This document shows, in pieces, positions 2,401 through 44,903 of a stretch of 64,000 nucleotides of DNA (positions within the stretch are counted from its first letter, which is position 1; each line of letters starts with the position of its first letter). The stretch is from a virus. Under the pieces are notes generated by a model. That model was not told the origin of the DNA. It saw only the letters and a list, made by a program, of their open reading frames with translations, and made no database searches. A program made the translations under genes and the position numbers. The stretch spans positions 44,688 through 108,687 of IMG/VR virus record IMGVR_UViG_3300032315_000979; one strand, 5' to 3'.

Positions 2401-2733
2401 ATGGCTGCAACTAGAAATATTACTATTTATCAAGGCGATACTTATGCTCATGAGCTACGCATTAGAAATAGTGCTAATGCTAATGTAACTATTACATCTA
2501 GAACTTACTCTGGTCAGATTAGAAAGAAAAGAAACTCTGACACGGCTGCAGCGACATTTACATCTGAAATCACAAACGGTGCTAATGGCATTGTTGTTAT
2601 GTCTTTGTCTGCTGCGGCTACAGCAAATATTGCTGCAGGGACATATGTTTATGATTTTCAAGAAACTAATGGCACCATTATCACCACACTGATTACTGGA
2701 ACAGTAACAGTAACTGGTGAGGTAAGTAGGTAA
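2401..2733 (+). CDS. virion structural / fibre-adaptor protein (BppU-N/LtfC-like)
   Basis: ITIYQGDT..., GTYVYDFQ pattern typical of these beta-sandwich adaptors; AGGAG RBS. Confidence 0.55.
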   Translation: MAATRNITIYQGDTYAHELRIRNSANANVTITSRTYSGQIRKKRNSDTAAATFTSEITNGANGIVVMSLSAAATANIAAGTYVYDFQETNGTIITTLITGTVTVTGEVSR

Positions 2734-3032
2734 TGGCTGGGGACATCACAACCGTTCAGGTAACTAGCGGTGACATAACATCCCTATCTGTATCTACAGA
2801 TGTCTCAAATATCACGGTTGCTTCTGAGATTACAGCAGTAACCGTACAAACGAATGATACAACAGTACTAACTCAATCCCCTGGAACTATAAATTTAGCA
2901 TCACTTTCCTTTGCTACATCAGATCCAGCCGATGTCGCTAGAACTGCAAGTGTTGGAGTAAGCAATTTAGCGGCTAGGGCAGATCATGTTCATAGTGCAG
3001 CAAATCTATTAATGGATGGAGGAAATTACTAA
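2733..3032 (+). CDS. small virion/fibre-associated protein
   Basis: Thr/Ser/Val-rich; ARADHVH motif common in fibre proteins; TAATG-coupled on both sides. Confidence 0.55.
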   Translation: MAGDITTVQVTSGDITSLSVSTDVSNITVASEITAVTVQTNDTTVLTQSPGTINLASLSFATSDPADVARTASVGVSNLAARADHVHSAANLLMDGGNY

Positions 3033-4222
3033 TGGCGAATACGCTGAGAATTAAAAGAAGGGCGACTGGCAGTGCTGGCGCACCTACAAGTTTGGAGAAT
3101 GCAGAATTAGCATTTAACGAAGTAGATAATATTCTTTACTACGGTAAGGGAACTGGTGGCGCAGGTGGATCTGCAACCACTGTTGAAGTAATTGGCGGTC
3201 TTGGTGCTTTTCTTGCTTTAACAACTGATCAAACAATTACTGGCAACAAGACATTTAATGGCACAACGATTGTCGCAACTCCAACTGCAAACGGTCACGC
3301 AGCTACTAAGCTTTATGTTGATAGTGCAGTTGCCAATGTCGCAACTTCGTTTACAGCGGCTGGCGATAGCGGCACAGTCACTATCTCTAGCGGAACTGAC
3401 ACTCTTACAATTGCTGGTGGAACTGGTTTAACATCGTCAGCAGCATCTGTTGATACGATTACACTTAATCTTGATAACACAGCAGTTACGGCAGCTAACT
3501 ACGGTGCGGCTGGATCTGTTGCAACATTCACTGTTGATGCACAAGGTCGTTTAACTGCTGCTGCAAACACAACTATTTCAATCACTGCTTCACAAGTTAG
3601 TGATAGAGCAACAAACCTTGTAACGGGTTTGACAGGAACTGCAAATGAAATTGCAGTATCAAACTCTGGTGTTGGTGCAGTAACACTTAGCCTTCCAGCT
3701 AATGTTACGATCAGTAATAACCTCACAGTTTCTGGGGATTTGATTGTTAATGGTAATACAACAACTCTTAACACAGCAACACTCGTTGTTGAGGATAAGA
3801 ACATTGTTCTTGCAAATGTTGAATCACCAACGGACACGACAGCTGATGGTGCTGGATTTACAATCAAAGGTGCAACAGATAAGACATTGAACTGGGTTGA
3901 TGCTACTGACGCTTGGACATCCTCTGAGCACTTCAATATTGTTTCTGGTAAGTCATTCTACATTGGGGGCTCGGCTGTACTTTCAAATACAACTTTGGCT
4001 TCAAGTGTCGTTACCTCAAGTCTTACATCTGTAGGTACAATTGGTACAGGTGTATGGCAAGGAACTGCTGTAGCAATTGCTTATGGCGGTACTGGCTCTG
4101 CAAATGCTTCTGATGCAAGAACTGCATTAGGTCTTGCAATCGGTTCAAATGTTCAAGCCTACAGCGCTCAGCTCACAGCACTTGCTGCGAACACTGCTAC
4201 AATTGATGGTGGTACTTTCTAA
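3032..4222 (+). CDS. tail/head fibre protein
   Basis: N-terminal IKRR...APTSL..AELAFNE; AATKLYVD, TVDAQGRLT, VEDKNIVL, GGTG..ARTALGL fibre motifs; ends DGGTF. Confidence 0.75.
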   Translation: MANTLRIKRRATGSAGAPTSLENAELAFNEVDNILYYGKGTGGAGGSATTVEVIGGLGAFLALTTDQTITGNKTFNGTTIVATPTANGHAATKLYVDSAVANVATSFTAAGDSGTVTISSGTDTLTIAGGTGLTSSAASVDTITLNLDNTAVTAANYGAAGSVATFTVDAQGRLTAAANTTISITASQVSDRATNLVTGLTGTANEIAVSNSGVGAVTLSLPANVTISNNLTVSGDLIVNGNTTTLNTATLVVEDKNIVLANVESPTDTTADGAGFTIKGATDKTLNWVDATDAWTSSEHFNIVSGKSFYIGGSAVLSNTTLASSVVTSSLTSVGTIGTGVWQGTAVAIAYGGTGSANASDARTALGLAIGSNVQAYSAQLTALAANTATIDGGTF

Positions 4223-11634: not shown

Positions 11635-14600
11635 ATGTCTGATGTTGATCTAATAATTAATGTACATACTAATGGCGTTAAGGATATTACTAACCTTAGT
11701 GCTGCCACTAGAGCCTTAGCCCTCAATCTAAGGGGTATTACAGTACCAATGAGCAAGCTTGATGCTCACAGCCGAGCTGTGAACAAAGCTCTTGGAATGA
11801 CAAACAGAAGCATGAATGATCATGCAAAGACTGCCAAGCAGATGATTGCAAATCAGAAGGCTCTGAGTGCAGAAACTAAGCGTGTTCAATCAAACATCAA
11901 GTCATACGCTATGGCTATTCAATCAGCTGGTGGTACAACCACAGCGTTTGGTAGAGAGCTGATCCAAAGCAGGAATGAATTAAAGCAATTTAGTTCAACC
12001 CTAAGAGGCTTGCGAATTAGAGCATTTGGCTCAGACCTTGGTTCAATATCACTAAAACTACAACGAATTGGTAAAGACGCACAGTTTGTTGGTAGAAGCT
12101 TGATGATTAACCTCACAGCTCCAATCCTTCTATTTGCAAGAATGGGCTTCCAGAGCTTGTTGAAGGTTGATGAGCAATTTGTAAGATTGACAAAGGTTCT
12201 TGAAGGCGTTGCTATGACAACCGATCAAGCAAACTCAAAGCTTAAAGATTATCTTGGTCCAGACAAGGAGAAGAGAGTCAAGCAAATGACCGACTCCTTT
12301 AGAGAACTAAATACCGCTTTGACCGAGCAAAGCGCAAGATTCGGTGTCGCAAAAGATTTAGTAGTTAGTCTGGCTGTTGATTTTGCAGAACTTGGTGTTA
12401 CTGCAAATGAAAATATTGTAGCACTTACTGAATTAGCATTAGCTGCAGAAAAATTGGGAGGAATGGATGCATCTGGTGCGCAAGATCTATCCTCAGCCTT
12501 GTTCTTTAATGCAACGAGAGCATACGAGGTTGCTGGTGCATTTGATGATGTAACAACAGCTGCTGAGCGTGAATCTAAAGCTATAGCGTCAGCAACAGTT
12601 CAGCTCAACATGTTCAACACAATTGAAAATGTCACCGCACTTTCATTGAAAGACCTTGCTGATTCACTACCTGAACTTGGAGGTATGGCGCTAAGTTTCG
12701 GACTATCAATGACAGAAGCAGCCGCTCTGCTTGCACCAATGAAGGCTGCTGGTTTTGATATTGGCGCATCTGCAAACTCAATTAAAGTATCTTTGCAAAG
12801 AGCAATTGTTCCAACTAAGCAAAATGTTGAACTACTAGCAAAACTTTCTAAGCAATATGGTGTTACTGGCAAATCTGGTAACGCATTTAGCGAATCAACA
12901 AAGACTGGTCTAACAGGACTTCAAGCTATTGTTGATATTTTTGGAAAAGTTGTTGAAGGTGGAAAAAACACTGAAGCTGGACTGAAACTGATGTCTGAAA
13001 TATTTGAAAAGCGTCAGGGTCCAAGAATGTATGTTGCTATTGAACAATTGAATCAGTTTGATGCTGCTTTGAAAAATGTTAATGCTAATCAATCACCAGA
13101 AAGATTGATGGCAGGTGTTGCTGAAGCATCCATTAGAGCCTTTAATAAACTTAACGGCACAGCACTCCCAGAAACAATAAGTCAGTTTAGTGATATTGGT
13201 GTTATCGCAAGAATTGCTACTGCTGAAGTTGGAGCATTAGTTGATGGGTTTAAAGGCAAAGGTGCAGGCGGTGGTATTACAGCAGCAGAAAAGAAAGGTG
13301 CTATGGAGGCACGAGATGCTGTAGCCAAGCTGATTAAAGAGAAGAAATTAAATGAAGATATTGACTTAATCAGCCAAGTTAAAACACAGGCTGGTCGTGC
13401 TCTGCTTGTTGAGCTTGCAGGTGCATCTGGCGCTGCGGATGTAGCAAACATGGAATTAGAGCAGTCATTGAAATCTCTTTCGGTTGCTACTCAGAGAATA
13501 AAGATTGCATTTAAAAACTTTGCTGCAGATGTGCTTAGAAATGTAGCTCCATCACTAAAGAAGTTGTCTGATACGATCAACAGTCTTTATCTAAAATGGC
13601 AAGCACTAAGTGACACAACAAGAGAAAGAATATCCAAATTAATTCTTGGCTTCCTCGGTTTCTTAGCAGTAATGGCACCAGTAATTCTTGCATTAGGAAC
13701 AATGCAATCATCTATCGGTGTGCTTGGAAGAACCGCTACATTCTTCTTACCGAAGCTAAAGAATTTTGAAGGTGGTCTTGTAGGAATTGCTGGTGGAGCA
13801 AAGAAAGCAACCACGGCAATGACAGATATGTATAACAGTTTCCTTGGCAAGAAACAACCACTTTCTATGCTTCCAAGTTTTGCACCTGCTGGCGGTACAG
13901 CATCATCAATGATTGGTATGCCAACAAGAGTTGGTCGCAACATCACACTCCCTGGCAATATTGCTCCAACCCCAACACCACTAACTGGACTTACAGGCGC
14001 TGCTAGAACAAGTGCCATCAATGCAAACAGAGCAGCGAGGCTTTCTCATGCAGCAACAGGAAGACTGGGTGTAGATCAGTATCTTAGAAATGAAGCAAGT
14101 ATGCTTTCTGCTAATAATATGCGACTTAATGCTCGTGGTCGTGTAATTGGTCCAAGGGGTGGTTTTGTTGGTGGTAACATTCTTGGAAAAATTTCTGAAG
14201 CATCAGTATTAAGAGAAGCCGCTCTTGCGGATTCTGGAATCTCTAGAACAATGTCTGGAGGCGCAAGGCTTGCTACAAAGAGAGGCTTTGTAGATGTTAC
14301 TGAAGACAGAGCATTAAGAATTGCTCGTGGTGGTATTGGTGGTGCAATAGCAAGAAGAACAGCGGCGCTTCCTGGTTTGGCTGATTCATTTACTTCAGCT
14401 ACTGGCGTAACAGGAAGAGGTTTTGCAAGAGGAATGCTACCTACCCGTGGAGGGATCGCAACTGGTGCAGGAAATGTTAGAGGTTTAGCGTCAGCTGCAT
14501 TTAACGCTGGTCCAGTTGCTGCTTACACAAAGTCGGTGCAAGGTGCTAAAGCTGCAGTTCAAGCAATGAAGATTGAACAGATGGCTTTGGGTGGTAGCGC

Positions 14601-17600
14601 TGGAAAAATTAGAACAATGTCAACTGCAATGACTGGTTTTATGAAAGCTACAAAGCTTGGAACGGTTGCTCTTAAGTTAATGAAGATTGCTTTGATATCA
14701 ACTGGTATTGGCGCAATCATGCTGGGCATCGGTGTTGCTGTTTATATCATTGTTAAAAACTTTAGTGCTTTTAAAGATAAAGCATCTAATGCAATACTAA
14801 GAGTCAAGAACGCATGGGCAATATTTAAAGAATCTATTGGGATGCTAATTCAGCCTTTTGTAGATTTGTTTTCAATAATCGGTGGTGGTTCTAAGAAAGG
14901 TGGAGATGCTGTTGGCGGTCTTGCAAGCGCATTTGATTTAGTTGGGAAAGTACTACAGAAAGTAGCTTCTTGGTTTAAGATGCTGGTTGAAAACTTTATT
15001 CAGCCATATCTGTACATGATTATTGATATTGTAATGTTTGTTGTTTCAATATTCCAAGGCAACTGGGGTAAAGCTTTTGATTACCTTGTTGCCGCTACCT
15101 CTGGTGCAGTAAAGATTGTTATTAAGTTAATTGCCGCTTTGCTAAAAGGAATGGTGTGGATCACCGCTGGTGGAATTAAGTTGATAATCGGATACTTTAC
15201 ACTAATTCCAAAAGCTGTTGCTAAAGTGTTTAGTTTCCTTGAAAGAATTCCAGGTGTTGGTGGAATATTTGGATGGATTGGTGACAGTATCAATTTCGTT
15301 ATTGACGGTCTTTATGGATTGGTTGATGCGGGTAAAAATGCTGCTAGTGGTGCCATTGATGCAGTAGCTAACGCAGCAACTGGATTGCTAGATAAGGGCG
15401 TATCTAAGGGTATCAGCTCAGCCGAGGGTAAAATCAGTAATGATACAAAGATTAAAGACGCAGCAGAAGAAACTGGTGAAGAAGCTGGCGAAATCATGGG
15501 TAACTCCTTTGGTGATGGCTTTGAAGAGTCTGACGCTACTGGAAAAATTGCAAAAGCCATTGAAGAGGGCATTGTTGATGCCATTCAGAAACTTCAAGAT
15601 TATGTTGCTGGAGAGATGGCAGATGCATTAACTAAGTTTGTAGATGCATCCGTTAAGGCTCTTGAAAAGCAAAAAACATCTGCTCTAAAAGTATTTGATG
15701 TCCAAATCAAAACACTTGGTAAGCTTGAAAAAGCAGAAGAATCGCTTACCAAGAAGAAAGAATACGAAAATAATAGAAGAAAGATTATTGACAACCAAGC
15801 TCTTAGTAATGAGCAGTTCCGTAGAAACTATGCATTGGCTGTTTATGAAGGTCGTGTTGATGACGCAAGAATGCTACAGCTTCAGCAGAGCGCTGATGAA
15901 AAAGGATTTAGTAGTGACCTTTTAACAATTGAGCAAGAAAGGTCAAAGGATCTCGCAAAAGAAAACCTTGATGCTCTCAAGGAAGCTATTAACGAAGCAA
16001 AAGATGCAGCTTCATTATTCTTTGAAGAATCAATTGCTAAGTTCCAAGAGTCTGCTGCTCTAATTACAAAGGTTGCACCAGTTACTGTTGAACAATATAC
16101 GGCGCAACTACAAGAACTTCAAACATTAACAGAAACAAACGCTACCAATATGAATACAACATTTGGTGCGATGTTTGAAATTTTTGCAACCACAATTGCA
16201 GACAAGATGCCAAACAAGGTTATTGGACCATTTGCAACAAATCTTGACGAACTTGTATTAGTAGCAAAAGAAAAATTTGGTCTTGGATCTGATAAGAGTG
16301 AAAACACTGTAATTGGTATTACTATCGGAATGCTCGCTGGAATGGGAGTACAGTTTGGTGAAGGAAAGCAATTAGTAATTGATTCGTTCGGTGTAATAAC
16401 ATCTGGTCTCGCTCAAAACTTTACGGATATGAAGACCAAGTTCTTGGATGAGGTTAAGAGCGATTTCATTACAAACTTTAAGAAGGCACTGGATGAAGCA
16501 GAGCCAACAAAGGTTTTCAATCAAGCAATCATTGATGGAAACCTAAGCATCCTTAGAAGCTTCCAGAACATGGTGGATCTAAACCCAGCACTGATGGAGA
16601 AGTTAAGAAAGAGTCTTGATCCAGCAATTAATAAATACCTTGAACTAAAAGCAGCCGCAGATGCAGCAAAAGATGCAGCAGGAGCTGCAGCAGACGCAGC
16701 AGCAGGCGGTGGGGGCGGTGGTGGTGGAGGTGGAGGCACTGGTTCCCAACCAGGACCAGGAACACCTGCAGGTGGAAGAGCAGATGCATTTGCAAGAAAT
16801 AATGAACTCAGAGCTGCCAGAAATCTAAGAGCACTTACATATCAAGAATTTATTGGAAATTACAAGGGCTTCAAGAAGGGTGGAATAATTCCATCAAGAA
16901 CGCAAAATCAAAATCAAGGGTATCCAGAGGGCTTCATCCCAGCTCCAACACAAGAAGGTGTACCAACGCTTCTTCATGGTGGAGAATACATTCTTAATGC
17001 GAAGGCGGTTTCAAGAATCGGTGTAGGTGCTTTGAATAAGATGAATAATAACCTTATTCCAAAATTCCTTAAGGGTGGTCAGGTTCCAGGTGGAAAGAAA
17101 GGTACAGCTTCAAACACAAGAGGAACGGCAGATCGTCTTGAACAGAAAGTTACCAATAAAACATCTGCTTCGCCAAGTTCATTAAAAGCTCCAATAGACT
17201 TGTCAAAAATTCAAGGCGTTACTTTAAAACCGACTACACCTGTTAGTCCAAAAATTCCAGGAATTGCAACACCTGGTCACACCTATAGCTCCTCAGAGAT
17301 AAAAAAACTTACAATGCGACCAAACACTTATTTGGTTCCAGCCCCATCTTTCACATCCCCTGGAACTAAACAAGCGCCTAAAGAGTTCTTCCAAGTTGCA
17401 ACAAGACAAGAAGCGCTTTCTTATGCACAAATAAAAATGCAAAATGATGCTAAGGCAGCACAAAGAGCAGAGCAAGAAAAGTGGACAACATGGGAAAGAT
17501 TTATTGGTCAAAACACAGTTAATGGGGTCTCAACAATAGGTGGTCCATATAAACAATCGGGTATTGCAAGTGCAATTGAAAAATTCCCACTCGCAGGACT

Positions 17601-20600
17601 TCTTGTAAAAGATCTTGCTGTTGAATCAGCTAAGTCATTTGGAAGAACATTTTCTGGAAGCAATGCTCGTCAGTATTTAAACTTCGGCTCGGAAGGTCCA
17701 GGAATAACAGGTCGTTTGTTGATGGGCGCAGAGGATATTCTTAATATCATCAGCGCAGCTCAAATAACAAAGCCGTTTACAGAGCCTCTCAGAATGCCTC
17801 TTACTGCGGTTTTGAAGAAAAGAGGACTTGCTGAGGCATCAAGTGTTTGGCAAGAAGCAACTGGAACTAGTTTTATAAGTCAACTTGAAACAATGGCTGG
17901 TGGTAATACATTTAAGGGTCTTCAAACTCAGGGTCGCATATTAACACAACTTGAAGCTAGAACATGGGATGAAGGTCTTTTCACGCTAGATAAGTTTATT
18001 AAAGAACAAGCTCGTATAAAATTGATGCAAGGCGCTGCAATTGATACAACCCTTGCTTCAACCGCTGCTTCAACCGCTGGGGTAAGAGGTGTTGGTTCAA
18101 ATATACTTAGCAGTAATCCAAGAATGCTGTCATTGAATGCTGGTAAGCAAATTAAGATTTCTATGGGTGCTAGAGGTGTAGATCTTTCTAACATGATTGA
18201 ATCTGGAGTCATAGATTCCACCCTTGCTAGTGGAAGTGGTTACATTAGTAATCAAAAATTCTTGTCTGAGCTTGGAATAATTAATCCAGAATACAGTAGT
18301 TATAACTCTACCAGAAGTAGGATGCAAACACCTGATGGTGTACTAAAAGGAAATATTAACTATGGATATGCAAGATTAGCTGATGATTTTGCAACAGCAG
18401 CTAATTATAGAGAGTTCCACATGAATATTGGTGAGGCTGGGGCGCTTTATATGAATGAAACTGGTGCTTGGAGAAGAAATATACAAGGTGAGCTTGACAA
18501 GATTCTTGGTGGTGCAATTATTAATTTGAAACCAAGTGCTGCTATGACATACACTCAGGGCGACAGTTATAACATGTTCTTAAGAAGTTTACTTACTAGC
18601 AATAATCCAGCACAAAATCTACCACAATACCTTGGTGATATTCCTTTAGTTGCTGAATATGGTGATAAATTAATTGCTGATGCTGCTGGTAACTATACTG
18701 AAGTTCAATTCCCATCAATCCCATTTGATGGTTCAGCAATTGAATCCATAATTCTAAGCAGAGAAAATTTAATGCAATATTATTCACCACCTGGCACAGT
18801 AAATCAAAGTGGTTGGGGTAGTCAATATTTATCAATTGCTGGACCACAAGAGCAATTAGTAATGCAAAGAGAGCTTGCAAAGCAATTAGCAGCTCGTGGT
18901 ATTGATGTTAAAACTGGTTTAGATGATTTAATATTCAATGAGAACTATACTAATGCAACTAGAACAGTTAAATTTGATCCAGTTCCTCTCCATCAAATTC
19001 CGCAAGATGAATTTGACAAGATGCTACTCAGTATTACACAGAAGTTAAGAGCAGATCAAGGCTTGCCATCAATACCACAAGATGTTATCACATCTGACAC
19101 ATTTAATATTAAATCAATACAAGACGGAATCAAGGGGTTCATTGCTAACTATAGAACAGCAAACTCATTACTATCAATGCCAACAGAGAGTGTTAGCGCT
19201 GCATTGAATACATCTATTTTTGAAAGTGCTGGTGGAAGACTTGCAGGAGGCTTAAATCGTGTTAGAGGAGCTTTTTTTGGACCTAGATCTGGCAGTTCAG
19301 TTAGTCGTTTAGAAAGTTTAGATATCACACCAGATGCTGCTTTCAAAGATTCTCGTGGACTTTATAATGCTGGAAATATTGGTGCGTATATACAAAAAAT
19401 GTATAGTTATGGATTTAGTTCAACAACTAGGTCATCAATATTGGAGGACTTAGTTGGAAGTGCAGACATGTCCCTTAATGTTGCTAGAGGCTATACATCA
19501 CCTGCATACTATGCATCACGACCATTCTTTCCAGAAACAGGTAATGTTCCAGGAGTAGGTATGGCTCGGTCTTTTATTGGTGATCCTAATGGAATATCTA
19601 CTGGAATTGGTTTGACTAATCTTCAGGTTGCAGCAAGAGAATACATTTTAAAAAATATTGATCTTGCTGCATCAGAAAACGCTAATCTACTAAGTGATTT
19701 ATTGTCAATTATTCAGGGCGATATGTCTGGAAGTGCTTTAGATAGTGGTTCAATTCAAGATTTTGCTTATGGAATTAGAAATAACAGCAATATTAATACA
19801 TCTACTTTTAATAACATGACACCATCTTTGTGGATTCAAACTAGACATGCTATGAGTGATATTTCACTAGGTCAATTAGGTTGGAATACACCAGAGAATT
19901 TATCATTATTTGATGATGTTTATCAAAAATATTTTGAATCATACATAAATACTGCAAATACATTAAGTGCCATTGGGTTTTCAGAATATGGAGATGAATT
20001 CCCACTACAAGGAATATCTTTCACAGATTTCTCTAGAAATTTTAAAGTTTCATTAGGCAAAGTTGCCGAGATGGATCCTAATGACATGATTGTTCAATTA
20101 CTACAGGCTGGAGATACGGCAGGAGCTGCATTTGAACTTAAAGCTCGTGTATTTCGTAATATAGCTAGTGAATTTGATATTCCTGGCAATGAAATAACAT
20201 CATATGATATATTGGGCGGTTATTCAGATACTGGTCGTCTTAACCTTAGAAGGACAATTAGTCCTGCTCATGAAAAGAGTTGGTTCTTTAAACTAAAAGA
20301 TAATGCATCTATCTTAGATGAAGTTGGGAATCAAATACCTAACGGTTACTCTCTATCGGCACTAGTAAATTCTAGAATTGGTAATATGCCTACATCTATC
20401 TTCAGCAGAGATGCTGCTTCAGTGGTAGGAAGACGAAATAATGGTACATACACTGGAGTATTTAATGAGTTTATGTCAAATTCTATGGCAGCAAGCGGTG
20501 CTGCTCCTAATTCTTCAAATTTTTATGATGAGATTAACGAAATAAGAGATAGGTTGGGAACTTTTCATCCCCTTAATGTATCTAGAGATGTAATGCCACT

Positions 20601-22665
20601 ATCTTCTGGCATAGAGCAATACCTTACTGGTTCAACTCGCCGCCCTATTGACACAGGTGCTGGATGGAAACTACAACCTTCATCATGGTCATGGGATGAT
20701 GAAATAAAATTAACACAATTGATGGAGAATGCTTCTGGAAGCGGCTTCGGAATGTCTGCTAAGTTTGGTAGAGGTATTCCTATACCAAATGAATTCTCAG
20801 ATTTGGTAAAAGAAATGTGGATTGCTCATTCCACAGCTGGTTCGCCGCAAATAGATAATCAAGCAATTAGAAATGTTTGGGAAAATTTCTTATCAACTAA
20901 AGATCAATTATTTACTTCTGGAAACAGTTACGATCCAATTGGATTTAATTCATACATGAAAGATAAGCAAAGTGGTTTGTACCGAAAAGGAATATATCAA
21001 TCTGGAAGTCCATTTGATTTAGGCGATCTTGCAAATCTTGGATATCAAAACCCATTAGTTTTTGATAATGCAAATTGGATTGATTCAAGGTCAAGTACTC
21101 CAATAATTATGCCAAGGGTTGGTAGTCAAACAAAATTATATGGTGCTTTATATCAACTAGCAGGTCGTATTATTCCAGAGATACAGATGCAAGCTGCAAA
21201 AACTATGTCACTAGATGCATTGAGTAATAGTTCAATTGCAAATTTAACACCGCAAGCTTTACTTGAAAGTCAAGATTTTGCAAGATATTTAGGTGCAAAA
21301 ATTCCTTCATCAACTGTTTATGAATCAAATCCAGATATTGCAAATATTTTGGCAAATATGACCAATCTAAAAGGGTATAAGACAGGGAATCTCTTCTCTC
21401 TTGAAACACCACTGCATCCAGACGAGTATAACTGGTGGATAAAGTTATTTAAAAATGCAGAAAACAAAAATCTTAATTATGATCTGTTTCTTCCAGATGA
21501 CCCTAGCTTGTCATTAGATTATGGTGGTCTACCATTTGGTCAAGTTGGTCCAGGTGGTCCTTCTACCATGAATCCACAGAGTGTTTTAAAATCTAAAACT
21601 GTCCCTTATATGCAGAGGGGGCAAAATGCTGCTGACTGGTTAAAGTCACTCACCCCAGACATAAAAAATGATCGTATTGCATCTGTACGAGTTAGAAAAA
21701 CATTTTTTGACAAGTTAATTAAATGGTATGAAGCACCTGACGGTGTAAATCCTAACGATACTGGTTACTATTCTGATTATTTTGAAAAATTAACATCAGG
21801 AGGGGGTGCGGCTAAGGTAGAATTTACTGACCTTGTTGATTTGGCAAAGCAATCTAATTCATCATTTCCAACACCTGAATTAAGCTATGCTGGTAGATTT
21901 CCAAGCTCCACTTCTTATTTACAAAATTTGATAGCAGCTAGGAATTTACAATATGCTAGATTTATAAATACCGATACAGTACTTCAGTTTTCAGACAATG
22001 TTTCTGAATTTGCACAAGAAATTGCTGCGCAGTTTGCTACAATAGCCCCTCTTGCCCCAGGAGGCAGTAATTCTTTTAATCCAATAGATGATATATCAGC
22101 TTCTGCTGAACAAAGAACAGCGCTTGAGGCTGCAGAATGGATTACTAGAGGAGGATTCATGTCTCCTTCAGCAATTCTAGAAGAATTTGTCATGGCTCAA
22201 ATGAAAGGTTCAACTCTGGCTTCAGCAATGCAAAGTACAACATCAGATAAATCTTTGTTAGGTGTTAATAAATTTATTAAGAAATACGGAAAAATGAAAA
22301 TTAAAGGCTTTAAGACTGGTGGTTATGTTCCTGGAGCTCCATCAACTGCAATCCCTGCAATCTTGCATGGTGGTGAATATGTAATCAACGCAGATGCTGT
22401 AAGAAACATGGGTGTAAGAACAATGCAAAGCATCAATCAGTCAAAGTTTAAAGCACCTTCTGGAGCTCCATCATACGCAGGCGGTGGACAGACAACCAAT
22501 GTGTCCACAGTCAATATCAATGTAGACACCTTTATTGGGGAAGAAGAATGGTTTAAAGGAATGATGAAGGATTACAATGTTAATGTACTCCCAAGACAAC
22601 AAAAAGCAGCTGGTTTAGAATCAAGAACATTTACAAGTTATAATGGAATACAGGGTGGTTTCTAA
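11635..22665 (+). CDS. tape measure protein, 3676 aa, with a large C-proximal cargo insertion
   Basis: Follows the chaperone pair; helical Ala-rich N-terminal region, hydrophobic segments, coiled coil; two HGGEY modules. Confidence 0.9.
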   Translation: MSDVDLIINVHTNGVKDITNLSAATRALALNLRGITVPMSKLDAHSRAVNKALGMTNRSMNDHAKTAKQMIANQKALSAETKRVQSNIKSYAMAIQSAGGTTTAFGRELIQSRNELKQFSSTLRGLRIRAFGSDLGSISLKLQRIGKDAQFVGRSLMINLTAPILLFARMGFQSLLKVDEQFVRLTKVLEGVAMTTDQANSKLKDYLGPDKEKRVKQMTDSFRELNTALTEQSARFGVAKDLVVSLAVDFAELGVTANENIVALTELALAAEKLGGMDASGAQDLSSALFFNATRAYEVAGAFDDVTTAAERESKAIASATVQLNMFNTIENVTALSLKDLADSLPELGGMALSFGLSMTEAAALLAPMKAAGFDIGASANSIKVSLQRAIVPTKQNVELLAKLSKQYGVTGKSGNAFSESTKTGLTGLQAIVDIFGKVVEGGKNTEAGLKLMSEIFEKRQGPRMYVAIEQLNQFDAALKNVNANQSPERLMAGVAEASIRAFNKLNGTALPETISQFSDIGVIARIATAEVGALVDGFKGKGAGGGITAAEKKGAMEARDAVAKLIKEKKLNEDIDLISQVKTQAGRALLVELAGASGAADVANMELEQSLKSLSVATQRIKIAFKNFAADVLRNVAPSLKKLSDTINSLYLKWQALSDTTRERISKLILGFLGFLAVMAPVILALGTMQSSIGVLGRTATFFLPKLKNFEGGLVGIAGGAKKATTAMTDMYNSFLGKKQPLSMLPSFAPAGGTASSMIGMPTRVGRNITLPGNIAPTPTPLTGLTGAARTSAINANRAARLSHAATGRLGVDQYLRNEASMLSANNMRLNARGRVIGPRGGFVGGNILGKISEASVLREAALADSGISRTMSGGARLATKRGFVDVTEDRALRIARGGIGGAIARRTAALPGLADSFTSATGVTGRGFARGMLPTRGGIATGAGNVRGLASAAFNAGPVAAYTKSVQGAKAAVQAMKIEQMALGGSAGKIRTMSTAMTGFMKATKLGTVALKLMKIALISTGIGAIMLGIGVAVYIIVKNFSAFKDKASNAILRVKNAWAIFKESIGMLIQPFVDLFSIIGGGSKKGGDAVGGLASAFDLVGKVLQKVASWFKMLVENFIQPYLYMIIDIVMFVVSIFQGNWGKAFDYLVAATSGAVKIVIKLIAALLKGMVWITAGGIKLIIGYFTLIPKAVAKVFSFLERIPGVGGIFGWIGDSINFVIDGLYGLVDAGKNAASGAIDAVANAATGLLDKGVSKGISSAEGKISNDTKIKDAAEETGEEAGEIMGNSFGDGFEESDATGKIAKAIEEGIVDAIQKLQDYVAGEMADALTKFVDASVKALEKQKTSALKVFDVQIKTLGKLEKAEESLTKKKEYENNRRKIIDNQALSNEQFRRNYALAVYEGRVDDARMLQLQQSADEKGFSSDLLTIEQERSKDLAKENLDALKEAINEAKDAASLFFEESIAKFQESAALITKVAPVTVEQYTAQLQELQTLTETNATNMNTTFGAMFEIFATTIADKMPNKVIGPFATNLDELVLVAKEKFGLGSDKSENTVIGITIGMLAGMGVQFGEGKQLVIDSFGVITSGLAQNFTDMKTKFLDEVKSDFITNFKKALDEAEPTKVFNQAIIDGNLSILRSFQNMVDLNPALMEKLRKSLDPAINKYLELKAAADAAKDAAGAAADAAAGGGGGGGGGGGTGSQPGPGTPAGGRADAFARNNELRAARNLRALTYQEFIGNYKGFKKGGIIPSRTQNQNQGYPEGFIPAPTQEGVPTLLHGGEYILNAKAVSRIGVGALNKMNNNLIPKFLKGGQVPGGKKGTASNTRGTADRLEQKVTNKTSASPSSLKAPIDLSKIQGVTLKPTTPVSPKIPGIATPGHTYSSSEIKKLTMRPNTYLVPAPSFTSPGTKQAPKEFFQVATRQEALSYAQIKMQNDAKAAQRAEQEKWTTWERFIGQNTVNGVSTIGGPYKQSGIASAIEKFPLAGLLVKDLAVESAKSFGRTFSGSNARQYLNFGSEGPGITGRLLMGAEDILNIISAAQITKPFTEPLRMPLTAVLKKRGLAEASSVWQEATGTSFISQLETMAGGNTFKGLQTQGRILTQLEARTWDEGLFTLDKFIKEQARIKLMQGAAIDTTLASTAASTAGVRGVGSNILSSNPRMLSLNAGKQIKISMGARGVDLSNMIESGVIDSTLASGSGYISNQKFLSELGIINPEYSSYNSTRSRMQTPDGVLKGNINYGYARLADDFATAANYREFHMNIGEAGALYMNETGAWRRNIQGELDKILGGAIINLKPSAAMTYTQGDSYNMFLRSLLTSNNPAQNLPQYLGDIPLVAEYGDKLIADAAGNYTEVQFPSIPFDGSAIESIILSRENLMQYYSPPGTVNQSGWGSQYLSIAGPQEQLVMQRELAKQLAARGIDVKTGLDDLIFNENYTNATRTVKFDPVPLHQIPQDEFDKMLLSITQKLRADQGLPSIPQDVITSDTFNIKSIQDGIKGFIANYRTANSLLSMPTESVSAALNTSIFESAGGRLAGGLNRVRGAFFGPRSGSSVSRLESLDITPDAAFKDSRGLYNAGNIGAYIQKMYSYGFSSTTRSSILEDLVGSADMSLNVARGYTSPAYYASRPFFPETGNVPGVGMARSFIGDPNGISTGIGLTNLQVAAREYILKNIDLAASENANLLSDLLSIIQGDMSGSALDSGSIQDFAYGIRNNSNINTSTFNNMTPSLWIQTRHAMSDISLGQLGWNTPENLSLFDDVYQKYFESYINTANTLSAIGFSEYGDEFPLQGISFTDFSRNFKVSLGKVAEMDPNDMIVQLLQAGDTAGAAFELKARVFRNIASEFDIPGNEITSYDILGGYSDTGRLNLRRTISPAHEKSWFFKLKDNASILDEVGNQIPNGYSLSALVNSRIGNMPTSIFSRDAASVVGRRNNGTYTGVFNEFMSNSMAASGAAPNSSNFYDEINEIRDRLGTFHPLNVSRDVMPLSSGIEQYLTGSTRRPIDTGAGWKLQPSSWSWDDEIKLTQLMENASGSGFGMSAKFGRGIPIPNEFSDLVKEMWIAHSTAGSPQIDNQAIRNVWENFLSTKDQLFTSGNSYDPIGFNSYMKDKQSGLYRKGIYQSGSPFDLGDLANLGYQNPLVFDNANWIDSRSSTPIIMPRVGSQTKLYGALYQLAGRIIPEIQMQAAKTMSLDALSNSSIANLTPQALLESQDFARYLGAKIPSSTVYESNPDIANILANMTNLKGYKTGNLFSLETPLHPDEYNWWIKLFKNAENKNLNYDLFLPDDPSLSLDYGGLPFGQVGPGGPSTMNPQSVLKSKTVPYMQRGQNAADWLKSLTPDIKNDRIASVRVRKTFFDKLIKWYEAPDGVNPNDTGYYSDYFEKLTSGGGAAKVEFTDLVDLAKQSNSSFPTPELSYAGRFPSSTSYLQNLIAARNLQYARFINTDTVLQFSDNVSEFAQEIAAQFATIAPLAPGGSNSFNPIDDISASAEQRTALEAAEWITRGGFMSPSAILEEFVMAQMKGSTLASAMQSTTSDKSLLGVNKFIKKYGKMKIKGFKTGGYVPGAPSTAIPAILHGGEYVINADAVRNMGVRTMQSINQSKFKAPSGAPSYAGGGQTTNVSTVNINVDTFIGEEEWFKGMMKDYNVNVLPRQQKAAGLESRTFTSYNGIQGGF

Positions 22666-23088
22666 ATGGTAGCTACAATACAAAATCAACAATCTGGTAT
22701 CACACATTTGGTAGTTATTAATGGGGAAGAAATTACCGAGCATGGTCGCCTATTCTCAAGCTCAATGGCAACATCTGCGTCAAATGTTGAATTATTGAAC
22801 GGGAATAAAAAGAGGTTTATTAAGAACGCTAAGAATGTATACACCCTTTCTTTTCAATATCTCCCAGACCATCCAGAAAGAACAATTGATGGTCGTAAGG
22901 CAAGAAACTATCTGCTATCAGTTGCCAAAACATCTTCATCTGCAAGTTTATCAATCACCTTAGATCCAGCAGAGCCATCTTATAATACTGTTGTCTATGT
23001 TGATTCATACAGCGAAACACTAGTGAGAAGAGATATTCCCAACCAATGTGCCTACTACAATGTTGAGATTTCTCTTAAAGAGAAATAG
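22666..23088 (+). CDS. distal tail (Dit-like) protein
   Basis: 140 aa directly after TMP; ends YNVEISLKE. Confidence 0.6.
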   Translation: MVATIQNQQSGITHLVVINGEEITEHGRLFSSSMATSASNVELLNGNKKRFIKNAKNVYTLSFQYLPDHPERTIDGRKARNYLLSVAKTSSSASLSITLDPAEPSYNTVVYVDSYSETLVRRDIPNQCAYYNVEISLKEK

Positions 23089-23091
23089 AAG

Positions 23092-24156
23092 ATGTCAGAT
23101 AGTTTTTATTCATTTAGTGAACCACTTAATCGTGGTATAGATTTCTACCAAGCGGATGCTGCGGATGTCACTGTTGATATCAACAGCAGTGTAACACTAA
23201 CAGTATCTTCTTATCAAATTAGACTTGCAAGCATTGCAATTGCTTCAAATTCTGAACTTATATCAAATTCATATAAGATTGCATACGCAGCAGCAAATCT
23301 TGCTGTTGATGGCGCAACTGTTGTTATTGCAACAGAAAGACAAGATGGTGATGTTGTAATTTCAGCAGAAGTTCTTGTTGAAACAAATATTACAAAGATT
23401 GCTTATGCAAGCGCTTCACTCTTCGCTGACTCTAATTCCGTAGCAAGCGGAACAAAGATTTCAATCTCATCTTGCGTCTTAAGCTCCGACTCATCGGTAA
23501 CTGTATCTGTAGGAAAGATTGCCTACAGTGTTTCTCAGATAGACATTCTCTCATCAATGCTTTCAAGCGGAACACGAATTGCTTTTGCTCGTGCAAATCT
23601 ATCGGGTCAGGTAAATCTCACTACCGCTGGCAAGATATTCTTAGCAACAATAAGAATTAATATACTTAACAATCTGGATGTTCGTGCAGAGGCAATTAGG
23701 TTTGGAGCTAACATAACTGCGGATAGCTCACTAATTAGAGCTCTGCTAATACTTGATGGAAAACCACTGACTAATCAAACAAGAACATTTGACTACTCTG
23801 TAACGCCATTATTTGTTGAAAATATAAATTGGGCTGGTGATTCGTCTAGATACTATAAGAATAATGCAGCAAATTCTTCTGGCAAGAGAACATTTAATAT
23901 TAAATGGAGCTTTATTCCAAACTATAGCAACAAGACAGTGGATTATAGAGAGTCAAGAAATTACCTTAAGACAGTAGCTATGGACCCAGATGTTCATACA
24001 TTAACAATTATTAATCAAGACGAGAACGGAGTTACTCCATATACAGAAGAGAATGTTACGGTCTTTGTATCTACTTTCTCTGAAAATCTAATAAGAAGAG
24101 ATCTTGTAGATGATGTATACTATTTTGATTGCTCTATGACGCTAGAGGAGGTGTAG
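23092..24156 (+). CDS. minor tail protein: 20-aa repeats plus Dit-like C-terminal domain
   Basis: KIAYA-type 20-aa periodicity; C-terminus aligns by eye with the previous gene. Confidence 0.65.
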   Translation: MSDSFYSFSEPLNRGIDFYQADAADVTVDINSSVTLTVSSYQIRLASIAIASNSELISNSYKIAYAAANLAVDGATVVIATERQDGDVVISAEVLVETNITKIAYASASLFADSNSVASGTKISISSCVLSSDSSVTVSVGKIAYSVSQIDILSSMLSSGTRIAFARANLSGQVNLTTAGKIFLATIRINILNNLDVRAEAIRFGANITADSSLIRALLILDGKPLTNQTRTFDYSVTPLFVENINWAGDSSRYYKNNAANSSGKRTFNIKWSFIPNYSNKTVDYRESRNYLKTVAMDPDVHTLTIINQDENGVTPYTEENVTVFVSTFSENLIRRDLVDDVYYFDCSMTLEEV

Positions 24157-36870: not shown

Positions 36871-39800
36871 GTGACAGAGTTTGTCCACTTGCATTGTCAT
36901 AGCGAGCACTCGCTACTAGACGGAATGTCAACACCTGAAGAGATCGCACAAATGTCAAGCTCTAACGGTCAGTTTGCTGCAGCAATTACAGATCACGGAA
37001 CAATGGCTGGAGTTCTTAGATTTCAAGATGCGTGTCAGAAACATGCTGTGCGACCAGTTTTTGGTGTTGAGGCATACTTTGTACCTTCAGTAAAAAATGA
37101 CGGTGATGGTAAGCATGAGAGATTTCACTTAATTCTTCTTGCAAAAAATAATATTGGTCTTAATAAGTTATTTAAAATGTCACAAATTGGTTGGCAAGAT
37201 AACTTCTACTACAAGCCAAGAATTGATTTTGATCTCCTAGAGGATATGGTTGATGATGACATTATTGCACTCTCTGGTTGCAGAGGAAGCTCTATCTCAA
37301 AAGCAATTGAGGCTGGGGATTATGGGCGGGCAGAACAATTGTCCGAAAGATTTGTTAAGATTTTTAAAGACGATTTTTACTTTGAACTACAGGCTTGGAA
37401 TCCCAAAGAGATTAATGATGGATTGCTTGATTTAGCATCATCGTTTGGGAAGAAGGCGGTAGCAACTGCTGACTGCCATTTCCCAACACATGCAGACAAA
37501 GGTGTAGAAGAAGTTCTCCTTCTTGTATCCCAGTACCCAAGTATTGGTGCTCAAACAATTAATGCTGCAAAAGAAAATCTTGCAACACTACATACTTGTG
37601 GTCCAGATTTGATTGACAGAGTTAATCACCTGTACCCTGATAGGTATTTGCGGTTTGATGATATCAATCCATATATTGCTGACGCTACAACTGTGCTTTC
37701 TTGGTTTAAAGAAGCTGGGTATGATAGGCAGGATATTCTAGAAAATACAATTGAGGTTGCAAGTAAGTGTAGTGCTGAGATTGTAAAGAGAAGAAATCTT
37801 CTTCCAAAGTACATGAAGTCACTTAACTCAGACGAGTATCTATCCGAACTTACAAACTTTAGATTGAAAGAACTCAATCTTGGTGATGAGTACAAGACAA
37901 GGCTTGATGAAGAGCTTGGGATTATCAAACAACTTGGATTCTCTGATTACTTCCTAATTGTATGGGATTTGATTTCCTGGGCTGATGCGAATGGTATTGG
38001 TCGTGGTACTGGTCGTGGTTCTGTTGGTGGTAGCGTAATGGCATTCCTTCTCAACATTACAAAAGTAGATCCAATCAAATACAATCTATTGTTTGCACGA
38101 TTCATTAACCCTGATCGTAACGACTATCCTGACATTGACTTGGACTTTGAAGATAAGCGTAGAAATGAAGTTAAATCTTATTTAAGAGAAAGATGGGGGC
38201 GTGACAATGTTGCTGCAATCACTACTTATGGTACTTTTAAGCCTAAGTCGGCTATTAAAGATGTTGCTAGAGTTCTTCAAGTTTCATATGAAGAGACTAA
38301 TAACATCACTCCTTTTTTTGAGACAATTGAGGAGCTTATGGAATCGTCTAAAGGTAAGATATTTTGTAATAAGTATCCAGATGTTCCAAAAGTTGCTAAA
38401 AGACTAGAGGGAAGAATTAGAAACGCTGGTGTTCATGCTGCTGGCATGGTTGTTTCATCTATTCCACTAAGTGAAGTCTGTCCGATTGAAACAAGAAAAG
38501 AAACAGACGGTGGAGAGCGTGTAATGGTTACGGCATTTGATATGACGGATGCAGAAGCTGTTGGGCTTATTAAGATTGACATCTTAGGTCTAAAGACCGT
38601 ATCTGTAATTAAAGACTGTCTAGCGAAGATTAAAGAGCGCACAGGGCTTGATGTAGAGGCTCAATCATTGTCACTTGACGACCAAGCGGTATTTACTAAC
38701 TTCAATAACGGTAATACCGTAGGCGTATTCCAAACGGATGCTGCAGCATATAGGAACCTAATTGAGCGAATGGGAATTGATGACTTCAAGGATCTTGTTG
38801 TATCAAATGCGCTGGTTAGACCAGGAGCTTTGCTTTCGCAGGGTCAGAAGTATATTGATTGCAAGAAAGGTTTTACCGAGCCCTACTATCCTGATAAATC
38901 AGTAAAGGATATTCTTGAAGAAACATATGGTACTGTAATTTTCCAAGAGCAATTAATGCAAATGTCGGTAAAGATATCTGGTTTTACATGGTCTGATGCT
39001 GACAAGCTAAGAAAGATTATCGGAAAGAAAAGAGATGTTGCAGAATTCAAGCAGTATAAAGATAAGTTTATCAATAATGCAATCATTCCAAAAACAGAGG
39101 CAAAGCAAATGTGGTCTGAGTTTGAAATGTCTGCTCTATATATGTTCAATAAATCACATGCTGTAGCATATTCAATGCTTTCATATCAAACAATGTGGTT
39201 GAAAGTTAACTATCCACTTGAGTTCATATGGTCTCTTCTATACAACGAAGATTCGTCTGAAAAAATTACCGCTTACTTGATGGAAGCTCAGAGACTAAAG
39301 ATTAATATTCTTCCACCAGATGTTAACTATTCGGAAGAATACTTTACAACATATGACAAAGATGGAGTAGAGGGAATCAGATTTGGTCTGTCAAATGTTG
39401 CTGGTTGTGGTGCATCGGCTATTAAAGAAATTACATCTAAGAGACCATTCAACTGCTTAGATGAATTCAACAACAAATGCTCTAAATCCGCTGTTAAAGC
39501 TCCGCTTAGAGAAAACTTAGAAAAGGTGGGTGCCTATGCGTCACTTAATCATGTATCTCAATATCAGCACGAAAGATACTATCTCCCAGTCCTGGGCTTC
39601 TCCATCCAGTCGGGTGAAGAAAAGAATGAGATGGATGAATTCGTTGGTAATCTTGCTGATTTCCATGAAATCAATTCTTCATTAACTCTTATTAAAGCAA
39701 TTGTTAGATCAACAAAGAAAACACCTCAGTATCTGAGAATTGAATTTGAAGATCACTCAGGTTCAGCTACCGTGTTTGCGGATAGAAATACTGAGATGGC

Positions 39801-40269
39801 AAATAGAGATTATGTATACGCTTTGATTGGAGATAGAACACTTCATTCTTTCTGTGATGCTTATAATTTCATCGGCTCAGACTTGCATAAGTTTATTACT
39901 CTTAGACAAAAGGGTGATAATCATGAATACAACTGGCTGTATGATACTGGTCTTGGTCATGTTGATGAAGAAAAGACTCTTATGTATGTTATGCACTCAA
40001 GAGTCTTTACAACATCAAAAGATAAGACAATGGCTAACATGTATTGCTGGGATGGAAAGCAGATATTTAAGGTTGTTATTTTCCCTAGACCATATACCAA
40101 GCTCAAGGGTATTATCAAGCAGGGACAATGGTATGCAGCAAGGCTTTCAAAGATTGAGGAAAAGCAAACTCTAACTCGTATGGACTCATACAAGGTGGAA
40201 TCTGACTCTGCTATTATTAGCATTGAAAATTATATTGAAAGAAAAAATCTGGTCAAAGCTATTGTCTAA
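36871..40269 (+). CDS. dnaE: DNA polymerase III alpha subunit with PHP domain
   Basis: HLHCHSEHSLLDG, ITDHG, GRGSVGGS, PDIDLDF, HAAG, KIDILGL, FNKSHAVAY. Confidence 0.95.
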   Translation: MTEFVHLHCHSEHSLLDGMSTPEEIAQMSSSNGQFAAAITDHGTMAGVLRFQDACQKHAVRPVFGVEAYFVPSVKNDGDGKHERFHLILLAKNNIGLNKLFKMSQIGWQDNFYYKPRIDFDLLEDMVDDDIIALSGCRGSSISKAIEAGDYGRAEQLSERFVKIFKDDFYFELQAWNPKEINDGLLDLASSFGKKAVATADCHFPTHADKGVEEVLLLVSQYPSIGAQTINAAKENLATLHTCGPDLIDRVNHLYPDRYLRFDDINPYIADATTVLSWFKEAGYDRQDILENTIEVASKCSAEIVKRRNLLPKYMKSLNSDEYLSELTNFRLKELNLGDEYKTRLDEELGIIKQLGFSDYFLIVWDLISWADANGIGRGTGRGSVGGSVMAFLLNITKVDPIKYNLLFARFINPDRNDYPDIDLDFEDKRRNEVKSYLRERWGRDNVAAITTYGTFKPKSAIKDVARVLQVSYEETNNITPFFETIEELMESSKGKIFCNKYPDVPKVAKRLEGRIRNAGVHAAGMVVSSIPLSEVCPIETRKETDGGERVMVTAFDMTDAEAVGLIKIDILGLKTVSVIKDCLAKIKERTGLDVEAQSLSLDDQAVFTNFNNGNTVGVFQTDAAAYRNLIERMGIDDFKDLVVSNALVRPGALLSQGQKYIDCKKGFTEPYYPDKSVKDILEETYGTVIFQEQLMQMSVKISGFTWSDADKLRKIIGKKRDVAEFKQYKDKFINNAIIPKTEAKQMWSEFEMSALYMFNKSHAVAYSMLSYQTMWLKVNYPLEFIWSLLYNEDSSEKITAYLMEAQRLKINILPPDVNYSEEYFTTYDKDGVEGIRFGLSNVAGCGASAIKEITSKRPFNCLDEFNNKCSKSAVKAPLRENLEKVGAYASLNHVSQYQHERYYLPVLGFSIQSGEEKNEMDEFVGNLADFHEINSSLTLIKAIVRSTKKTPQYLRIEFEDHSGSATVFADRNTEMANRDYVYALIGDRTLHSFCDAYNFIGSDLHKFITLRQKGDNHEYNWLYDTGLGHVDEEKTLMYVMHSRVFTTSKDKTMANMYCWDGKQIFKVVIFPRPYTKLKGIIKQGQWYAARLSKIEEKQTLTRMDSYKVESDSAIISIENYIERKNLVKAIV

Positions 40270-44586: not shown

Positions 44587-44903
44587 TGCCAGATATTATT
44601 GTTGACCCTGAAGTTCTTGCAGCGCAGATGGGTGATAAGTCAGAAGAGTTTATTAAATGCTTGGGTATTGTCCAAGACATTATTGAGAATCCACAAGATT
44701 ATATTGGTATGCAAGCTATTAAGTATGCAAACATCTTGGCTGGGTATAGAACGCTTATGATTGTGAAATCACAAGCCTTTAAAAGAAGATCTACTATTAT
44801 GAGCGAACAAGATAAGTTTGTTAATGATATTTGGAAAACAATGTACGAAGCACTAACTGAAAACATCAATGCCTTAAAACTGGCAGCAAAAGGAGTAAAT
44901 TAA
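44586..44903 (+). CDS. helical hypothetical protein
   Basis: 105 aa; conserved-looking position before the Cas4-like nuclease. Confidence 0.65.
   Translation: MPDIIVDPEVLAAQMGDKSEEFIKCLGIVQDIIENPQDYIGMQAIKYANILAGYRTLMIVKSQAFKRRSTIMSEQDKFVNDIWKTMYEALTENINALKLAAKGVN

Follow-up and report, generated by a model that had tools for sequence, protein, structure and literature searches.

An ADP-ribosyltransferase-like domain, predicted by structural modelling, as a removable cassette in a phage tail tape measure protein

Positions 44,688 to 108,687 of IMG/VR virus record IMGVR_UViG_3300032315_000979, a phage record of 108,687 bp with direct terminal repeats, constitute the 64,000-nucleotide stretch of DNA analyzed here (the window). 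Within it, a single uninterrupted open reading frame (ORF) encodes a protein of 3676 amino acids (aa) that is identified, from family homology and its position in a tail gene block, as a phage tail tape measure protein. Residues 2171–2477 of this protein form a real and discrete domain that is under constraint, retains residues of the ADP-ribosyltransferase (ART) type and is ART-folded in prediction. The features of the locus needed to place the domain, in window coordinates, are:

11635–22665, + strand: tape measure protein ORF, 3676 aa, carrier of the domain, with PHROG and PF10145 matches
16864–17043, + strand: first copy of a terminal motif (KGFKKGG...LLHGGEYILNA...), residues ~1744–1803, recognized by eye and through short cross-matches to the C-termini of relatives
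18145–19065, + strand: predicted ART-fold domain, residues 2171–2477, delimited by the match limits of relatives in HMMER and family hidden Markov model (HMM) searches
22303–22434, + strand: second copy of the terminal motif (KGFKTGG...ILHGGEYVINA...), residues ~3557–3600, recognized by eye and overlapped by phrog_3336

Both ends of the ORF match tape measure families. The N-terminal ~1080 residues match phrog_5448 (E 3.6e-27, the best match), 10030, 1293, 4704 and 28, PF10145 matches residues 251–439 (E 2.5e-7) with 31.2 bits that narrowly miss the cut-off of 33.2, and the final ~75 residues of the ORF (3556–3629) match phrog_3336, a family of tape-measure C-termini. Upstream of the ORF is a gene for a major-tail-like immunoglobulin protein, and genes for minor tail and fibre proteins follow downstream, in a region where the G+C content of the phage is ~38–42%, and tape measure relatives were found at full length (3437–3755 aa). 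The ART-like domain sits within an extension of ~1750 aa that is bracketed by the two copies of the terminal motif, the first of which marks its start, and the protein looks as though a complete tape measure protein had a second tail-end segment appended. The duplication is visible only by eye and via relatives, as a self-BLAST returned nothing at E<=1e-3.

An earlier sequence-only reading had proposed a DUF3626/ART-like motif set at window positions 18145–18910 (+ strand; residues 2171–2425). Translation of this interval recovers all of the quoted motifs in frame and in the order given (IKISM, NMIESG, SGSG, INYGY, GGAIINLKP, MTYTQGDS, NYTEVQ, AIESIIL, and LAARGIDV), and the set exceeds chance, given its conservation in a 25-sequence alignment that reaches 23–28% identity. 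The proposed start is exact, because the matches of relatives begin at residue 2171; the proposed end falls ~50 residues too early, because the domain continues to about residue 2477 (window 19065).

When 1.84 billion representatives were scanned exhaustively with HMMER, only six proteins matched the domain at E<=1e-3, with a match span from 2171 to ~2477, and a profile search brought in 14 further stand-alone proteins of 432–558 aa. Searches with the domain found no relative in viral and genome contig collections and a single relative, L001, among metagenome contigs, while tblastn of the phage GenBank collection gave no match. In the ESM Atlas the top score (0.88) was to unnamed clusters with low recognition, and the only PHROG match was marginal, to phrog_36702 (unknown function, E 0.0092). 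Sequence searches of the PDB, whether by a 700-aa stretch or by a profile, returned no ART.

The members that were recovered occur in three settings. At least eight are tape measure proteins of 2514–5070 aa, and one cluster member carries the source name ‘TP901 family phage tail tape measure protein’. Fifteen small phage proteins (P0016 and P0027–P0040) hold the domain after a constant N-terminal module of ~125–165 aa (MADKPITRLASEMA...PEGALANAMV). Finally, proteins of 188–224 aa (P0014 and P0018–P0023) comprise only the C-terminal two-thirds of the domain, from family-HMM position 93, and may represent a split gene or a shortened form; these short forms occur on 20 contigs, the largest of 183 kb. 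On one 32-kb contig (L128, IMGVR_UViG_3300021962_000393; L128:8001–9954), adjacent paralogues join the same N-terminal module to two other, unrelated C-terminal domains. The combination of a constant module with varied C-terminal domains looks like a swappable, polymorphic-effector architecture. The neighbours on this contig are a 2434-aa ORF without a PHROG match, RusA, an exonuclease, and RecT.

Presence and absence of the domain can be followed among close tape measure relatives, ten of which, all giant proteins, were retrieved by a word-indexed search with residues 2050–2550. BLAST segments place P0003–P0005 collinear with the window protein throughout. In P0006, 77% identical elsewhere, the segments skip from residue 2177 to 2451, and the sequence at the junction confines the loss to residues ~2177–2462:

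18163–19020, + strand: cassette absent from P0006, residues ~2177–2462, from BLAST segments and the junction reading ...IKLS/ITQKLRADQ... (the slash marks the junction)

A further four proteins (P0008–P0011) maintain 89–96% identity across residues 1–2148 and then resume at the equivalent of residue 2499. The family HMM did not detect the domain in P0006 or in P0008–P0011. The domain is a discrete, removable cassette and, as close relatives lack it, is dispensable for building the tail. The two ARG[VI]D strings, one at either end of the domain, might have recombined to delete it, but this is not supported: the P0006 junction lies elsewhere (IKLS/ITQK) and no significant DNA repeat was found flanking the cassette. 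Compared to L001, the ratio of nonsynonymous to synonymous substitution rates for the domain (about 94–95% identical) is 0.28. In the same comparison, the tape measure protein is 87–94% identical up to residue 2477 and 50–56% identical thereafter (synonymous divergence of about 1; window 19066–22100, residues ~2478–3490), a sharp mosaic boundary immediately after the ART-like domain.

Two characterized enzymes provide reference points for the conserved residues. In the Salmonella effector SopF, the domain is DUF3626 (PMC6682159). This ADP-ribosyltransferase has an ‘I-Y-E’ triad; its Y224 and Y240 touch the nicotinamide and its E325 touches the N-ribose. In DarT, R51 precedes Y71 and E160 follows it, with the roles of these residues as given in PMC9967889. 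Across the 25 sequences of the family, down to 23–28% identity, at least 90% conservation is seen at G34, Y55, R59, Y75-G76, R79, D83, G141-D142-S143, Y186, E188, Q190, and G260 of the structural model, where model numbering plus 2168 gives the residue of the tape measure protein. The candidate active-site residues are:

18172–18174, + strand: Arg2180 (model R12), end of strand 1, in GARG, placed by the hhalign register in the position of the His in DUF3626 INFHPD
18313–18315, + strand: Arg2227 (model R59), nearly invariant, 16 residues ahead of the NYG Tyr, chosen by conservation
18361–18366, + strand: Tyr2243-Gly2244 (model Y75-G76) of NYGY, strand 74–80, nearly invariant, in weak hhalign register with the nicotinamide-stacking Y224 of SopF
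18406–18408, + strand: Tyr2258 (model Y90), 15 residues past Y75 and Phe in one member, chosen by conservation
18559–18567, + strand: Gly-Asp-Ser 2309–2311 (model 141–143) of MTYTQGDS, nearly invariant, aligning with DUF3626 TTFCYPDS
18694–18708, + strand: YTEVQ, residues 2354–2358 (model Y186–Q190), opening strand 187–191, with Y, E, and Q nearly invariant

Of these, Arg2180 is conserved in the tape-measure-borne group only, its place being taken by Q, T, N, or K in stand-alone relatives. Arg2227 is a possible counterpart of DarT R51 by analogy of placement, and Tyr2258 may, from spacing alone, correspond to SopF Y240, which follows Y224 by 16 residues. Glu2356 (model E188) aligns with the catalytic Glu325 of SopF, in YIEAH, in weak hhalign alignments (P = 0.018–0.07).

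The DUF3626 pattern described in the sequence-only reading is close to that of real DUF3626 proteins, and the order of motifs is shared: NYGYARL, GGAIINLKP, MTYTQGDS, YTEVQFPS, and AIESIIL in the window domain against KYGAL[ND], FGSsYFxLKP, TTFCYPDS, Y[IV]EA[QH]IHG, and DIExVVLD. An I-E pair occurs 15–16 residues past the Tyr in the window domain and in DUF3626 proteins alike. The statistics of formal comparisons were weak. At E<=10, Pfam assigned no family to the domain or to four relatives, and PF12294 (gathering threshold 27 bits) had no match in the domain, the four relatives or the whole phage genome; as positive controls, PF12294 was found in 24 of 301 Enterobacterales genomes and in SopF itself. 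An HMM built here for DUF3626 scored the family no better than shuffled sequences, and one built for DarT was likewise without signal. The DUF3626 comparison set consisted of 15 full-length proteins, six SopF-like proteins, and SopF. With hhalign, nine family members against the SopF-like proteins gave a weak P of 0.072, and 24 members against DUF3626 plus SopF gave a P of 0.018, significant in name only, with YTEVQ as the best segment; comparison to DarT gave P = 0.25–0.42, and the global mode performed worse than the local mode. The extended alignment, itself of weak P, keeps the motifs in register across 200–244 columns and sets Y75 on SopF Y224 and E188 on SopF E325. Collectively, the sequence evidence for membership of DUF3626 is suggestive and falls short of establishing it.

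AlphaFold2 without templates returned a predicted local distance difference test (pLDDT) score of 77.7 and a predicted template modelling (pTM) score of 0.81 with 10 sequences, increasing to 83.5 and 0.85 with 25 sequences, and the two runs agree in secondary structure, topology and the six top chains among the 48,161 searched. These chains are 7yk3_C (DarT, Z 7.8), 7omv (DarT, Z 7.6–7.7), 7dn9_A (SopF, Z 7.2–7.4), 7yw4_A (Tpt1, Z 7.1), and 8baq_A and 7omu (both DarT, Z 6.6–6.8), all from one ART branch, with OspC3/CopC next in the list. Matches in a viral structure library went down to E 1.4e-5 and took in a DUF3626-labelled phage protein, a ‘minor capsid protein’ and phage proteins that are long and multidomain. 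The domain is predicted to have a split beta-sheet ART fold nearest to DarT and SopF, and its family to fall in the DarT/SopF(DUF3626)/Tpt1 branch, yet as a sequence family of its own outside Pfam. Of the original DUF3626/ART-like proposal, the ART component is supported by a predicted structure that matches ART chains, while the DUF3626 component has no Pfam or HMMER signal and a profile match of only P = 0.018–0.07.

As the model derives from a shallow alignment and the structural scores are middling, the ART resemblance could in principle be an artefact that conceals another fold or function, such as that of a GDS hydrolase. This is very improbable, considering that two separate model runs converge on the same topology and the same branch, that the family was predicted from motifs alone ahead of any structure, and that the viral library matches include a protein labelled DUF3626. 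The Gly-Asp-Ser motif was considered as that of an SGNH/GDSL esterase and rejected: neither that fold nor any other hydrolase appears in any of the structural match lists.

The same list of chains raises the matter of which chemistry the scaffold supports. An enzyme that employs nicotinamide adenine dinucleotide (NAD) but is not a transferase of the SopF or Alt type might be expected from the Tpt1 match, which is level in Z score with DarT and SopF, and from the OspC3/CopC rows that follow; candidates would be a Tpt1/KptA-like RNA 2'-phosphotransferase, an NAD+ glycohydrolase acting to deplete or remodel the NAD pool of the host, or an OspC3-like ADP-riboxanase. The literature describes KptA homologues in phages as well as conflicts centred on NAD. 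However, the Tpt1 match spans only 104 residues compared to 164–180 for DarT and SopF, the register of the motifs fits SopF and not the H-H-h triad of Tpt1, and no RNA-repair partner genes were noticed in the phage genome, though these were not searched for thoroughly. Such an enzyme is judged improbable.

A further alternative retains the fold and dispenses with the chemistry. As a pseudoenzyme, the domain would play a structural or binding role in the extension, for example as a tip plug, an assembly spacer, or a contact for a receptor or membrane. Several observations count in favor of this role: the sequence does not resemble active ARTs to a significant degree, the His/Arg position of strand 1 is variable among family members, SopF Y240 has no certain counterpart, and non-enzymatic extensions of tape measure proteins are common. 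Conversely, the Tyr, Glu, GDS, and Arg are retained down to 23–28% identity and in both of two unrelated protein settings, a pattern more in keeping with an active site than with a spacer, and the tail is built without the domain in close relatives. On this evidence a pseudoenzyme is unlikely, though it merits more weight than a different NAD chemistry.

The interpretation favored here, with moderate confidence, is that residues 2171–2477 are an accessory enzyme domain of the ART superfamily, which would serve as an early host-takeover or anti-defence effector that reaches the cell from the tail. NAD+ would most likely be bound with Tyr2243, and perhaps also Tyr2258, against the nicotinamide, in a pocket composed of a Tyr/Tyr/Glu core together with an auxiliary Arg, and Glu2356 of YTEVQ would act as the catalytic glutamate. 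The ADP-ribose would then be moved onto a host macromolecule, either protein or nucleic acid; because the fold ties the domain to the DNA-modifying DarT and to the protein-modifying SopF, the target class could be either protein or DNA. Tape measure proteins leave the tail on infection. The variable C-terminal extension in which the domain resides belongs to a protein expelled as infection starts, and the domain would thus enter the cell together with the DNA or ahead of it, refold there and act early in host takeover or against defence.

Comparison to known systems delimits what the domain shares with each. SopF, the prototype of PF12294 (PDB 7DN8/7DN9), differs in that the window domain lacks a PF12294 match, has a different strand-1 residue and contains an additional helical insertion at model residues ~97–123. 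SopF is also a type III secretion effector that acts on the eukaryotic V-ATPase and requires a host ARF GTPase, a role that would be meaningless in a bacterial host. The likeness to DarT (PF14487) is one of fold, as Pfam, the HMM built here and hhalign (P = 0.25–0.42) provide no sequence signal. Further, DarT is one half of a toxin-antitoxin pair, whereas the window domain is embedded in a virion protein. No Macro (PF01661) or NADAR (PF08719) antidote domain was detected in the 108.7-kb genome at E<=1, and the Macro control was positive in 10 of 14 known genomes. A DarTG-type toxin-antitoxin system was rejected because the genome has neither domain and the candidate toxin lies inside a structural protein.

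ARTs packaged in the phage head are well documented and include T4 Alt, MuF-VIP2 fusions and those of phage polyvalent proteins. The window domain would resemble these as a virion-carried ART released into the host, if delivery from the tape measure protein occurs as proposed, and like them it comes and goes as a cassette between close phages. The head ARTs, which are enriched in myoviruses, are packaged via MuF, portal, or capsid-targeting sequences and are mostly of the R-S-E (Alt/VIP2) kind. Unlike them, the ART-like domain in the window has a long-tailed phage's tape measure protein as its carrier and belongs, by predicted fold, to the DarT/SopF branch. To our knowledge, all virion-delivered ARTs are head-packaged. 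The broad surveys consulted on phage-carried ARTs do not mention tape measure proteins, and a literature search for tape measure protein and ADP-ribosyltransferase found no description of such a fusion.

Embedded muralytic domains have precedent in the tape measure proteins T5 pb2 and that of mycobacteriophage TM4, and the embedded tape measure enzyme domains that we know of are of this cell-wall-cutting type only. Both examples share with the window protein an extra domain, catalytic in their case, that would be exposed on expulsion. The T5 pb2 and TM4 domains, however, cut peptidoglycan outside the cytoplasm, whereas an NAD-dependent transferase would need to act inside the cell. On the basis of the structural model, the window domain appears to be a new ART-fold family in a new and unreported virion carrier, putatively active and putatively delivered.

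A more expansive scenario can also be drawn. The domain may be the first tail-delivered, non-muralytic enzymatic effector, threaded via the tail and refolding in the cytoplasm to ADP-ribosylate host DNA (as DarT does) or protein before phage gene expression. In other phages it could be one member of a set of exchangeable ‘warheads’ placed after a constant N-terminal delivery module, which would point to a polymorphic-effector system with tape measures and small virion proteins alike as carriers. This scenario is tentative and, taken as a whole, doubtful.

An ART in a tape measure protein would show that the internal protein of the tail can ferry cytoplasmic effectors too, and would pose the problem of how a globular enzyme could be housed in, and travel through, the tail tube. 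The domain-plus P0002 and domain-minus P0006 proteins offer a natural comparison pair. The family links the DarT and SopF/DUF3626 branches, and Glu2356 and Tyr2243 provide a clear mutational test.

Elsewhere in the window, a DnaE-like DNA polymerase III alpha subunit (1132 aa, window 36871–40269) has ~38% identity to its nearest counterparts in GenBank phages, which are Streptomyces phages, and the phage lineage is poorly represented among cultured phages. Directly after the tape measure gene, two ORFs of 140 and 354 aa (window 22666–24156), with no PHROG family at E<=0.001, occupy the place expected for distal tail proteins.
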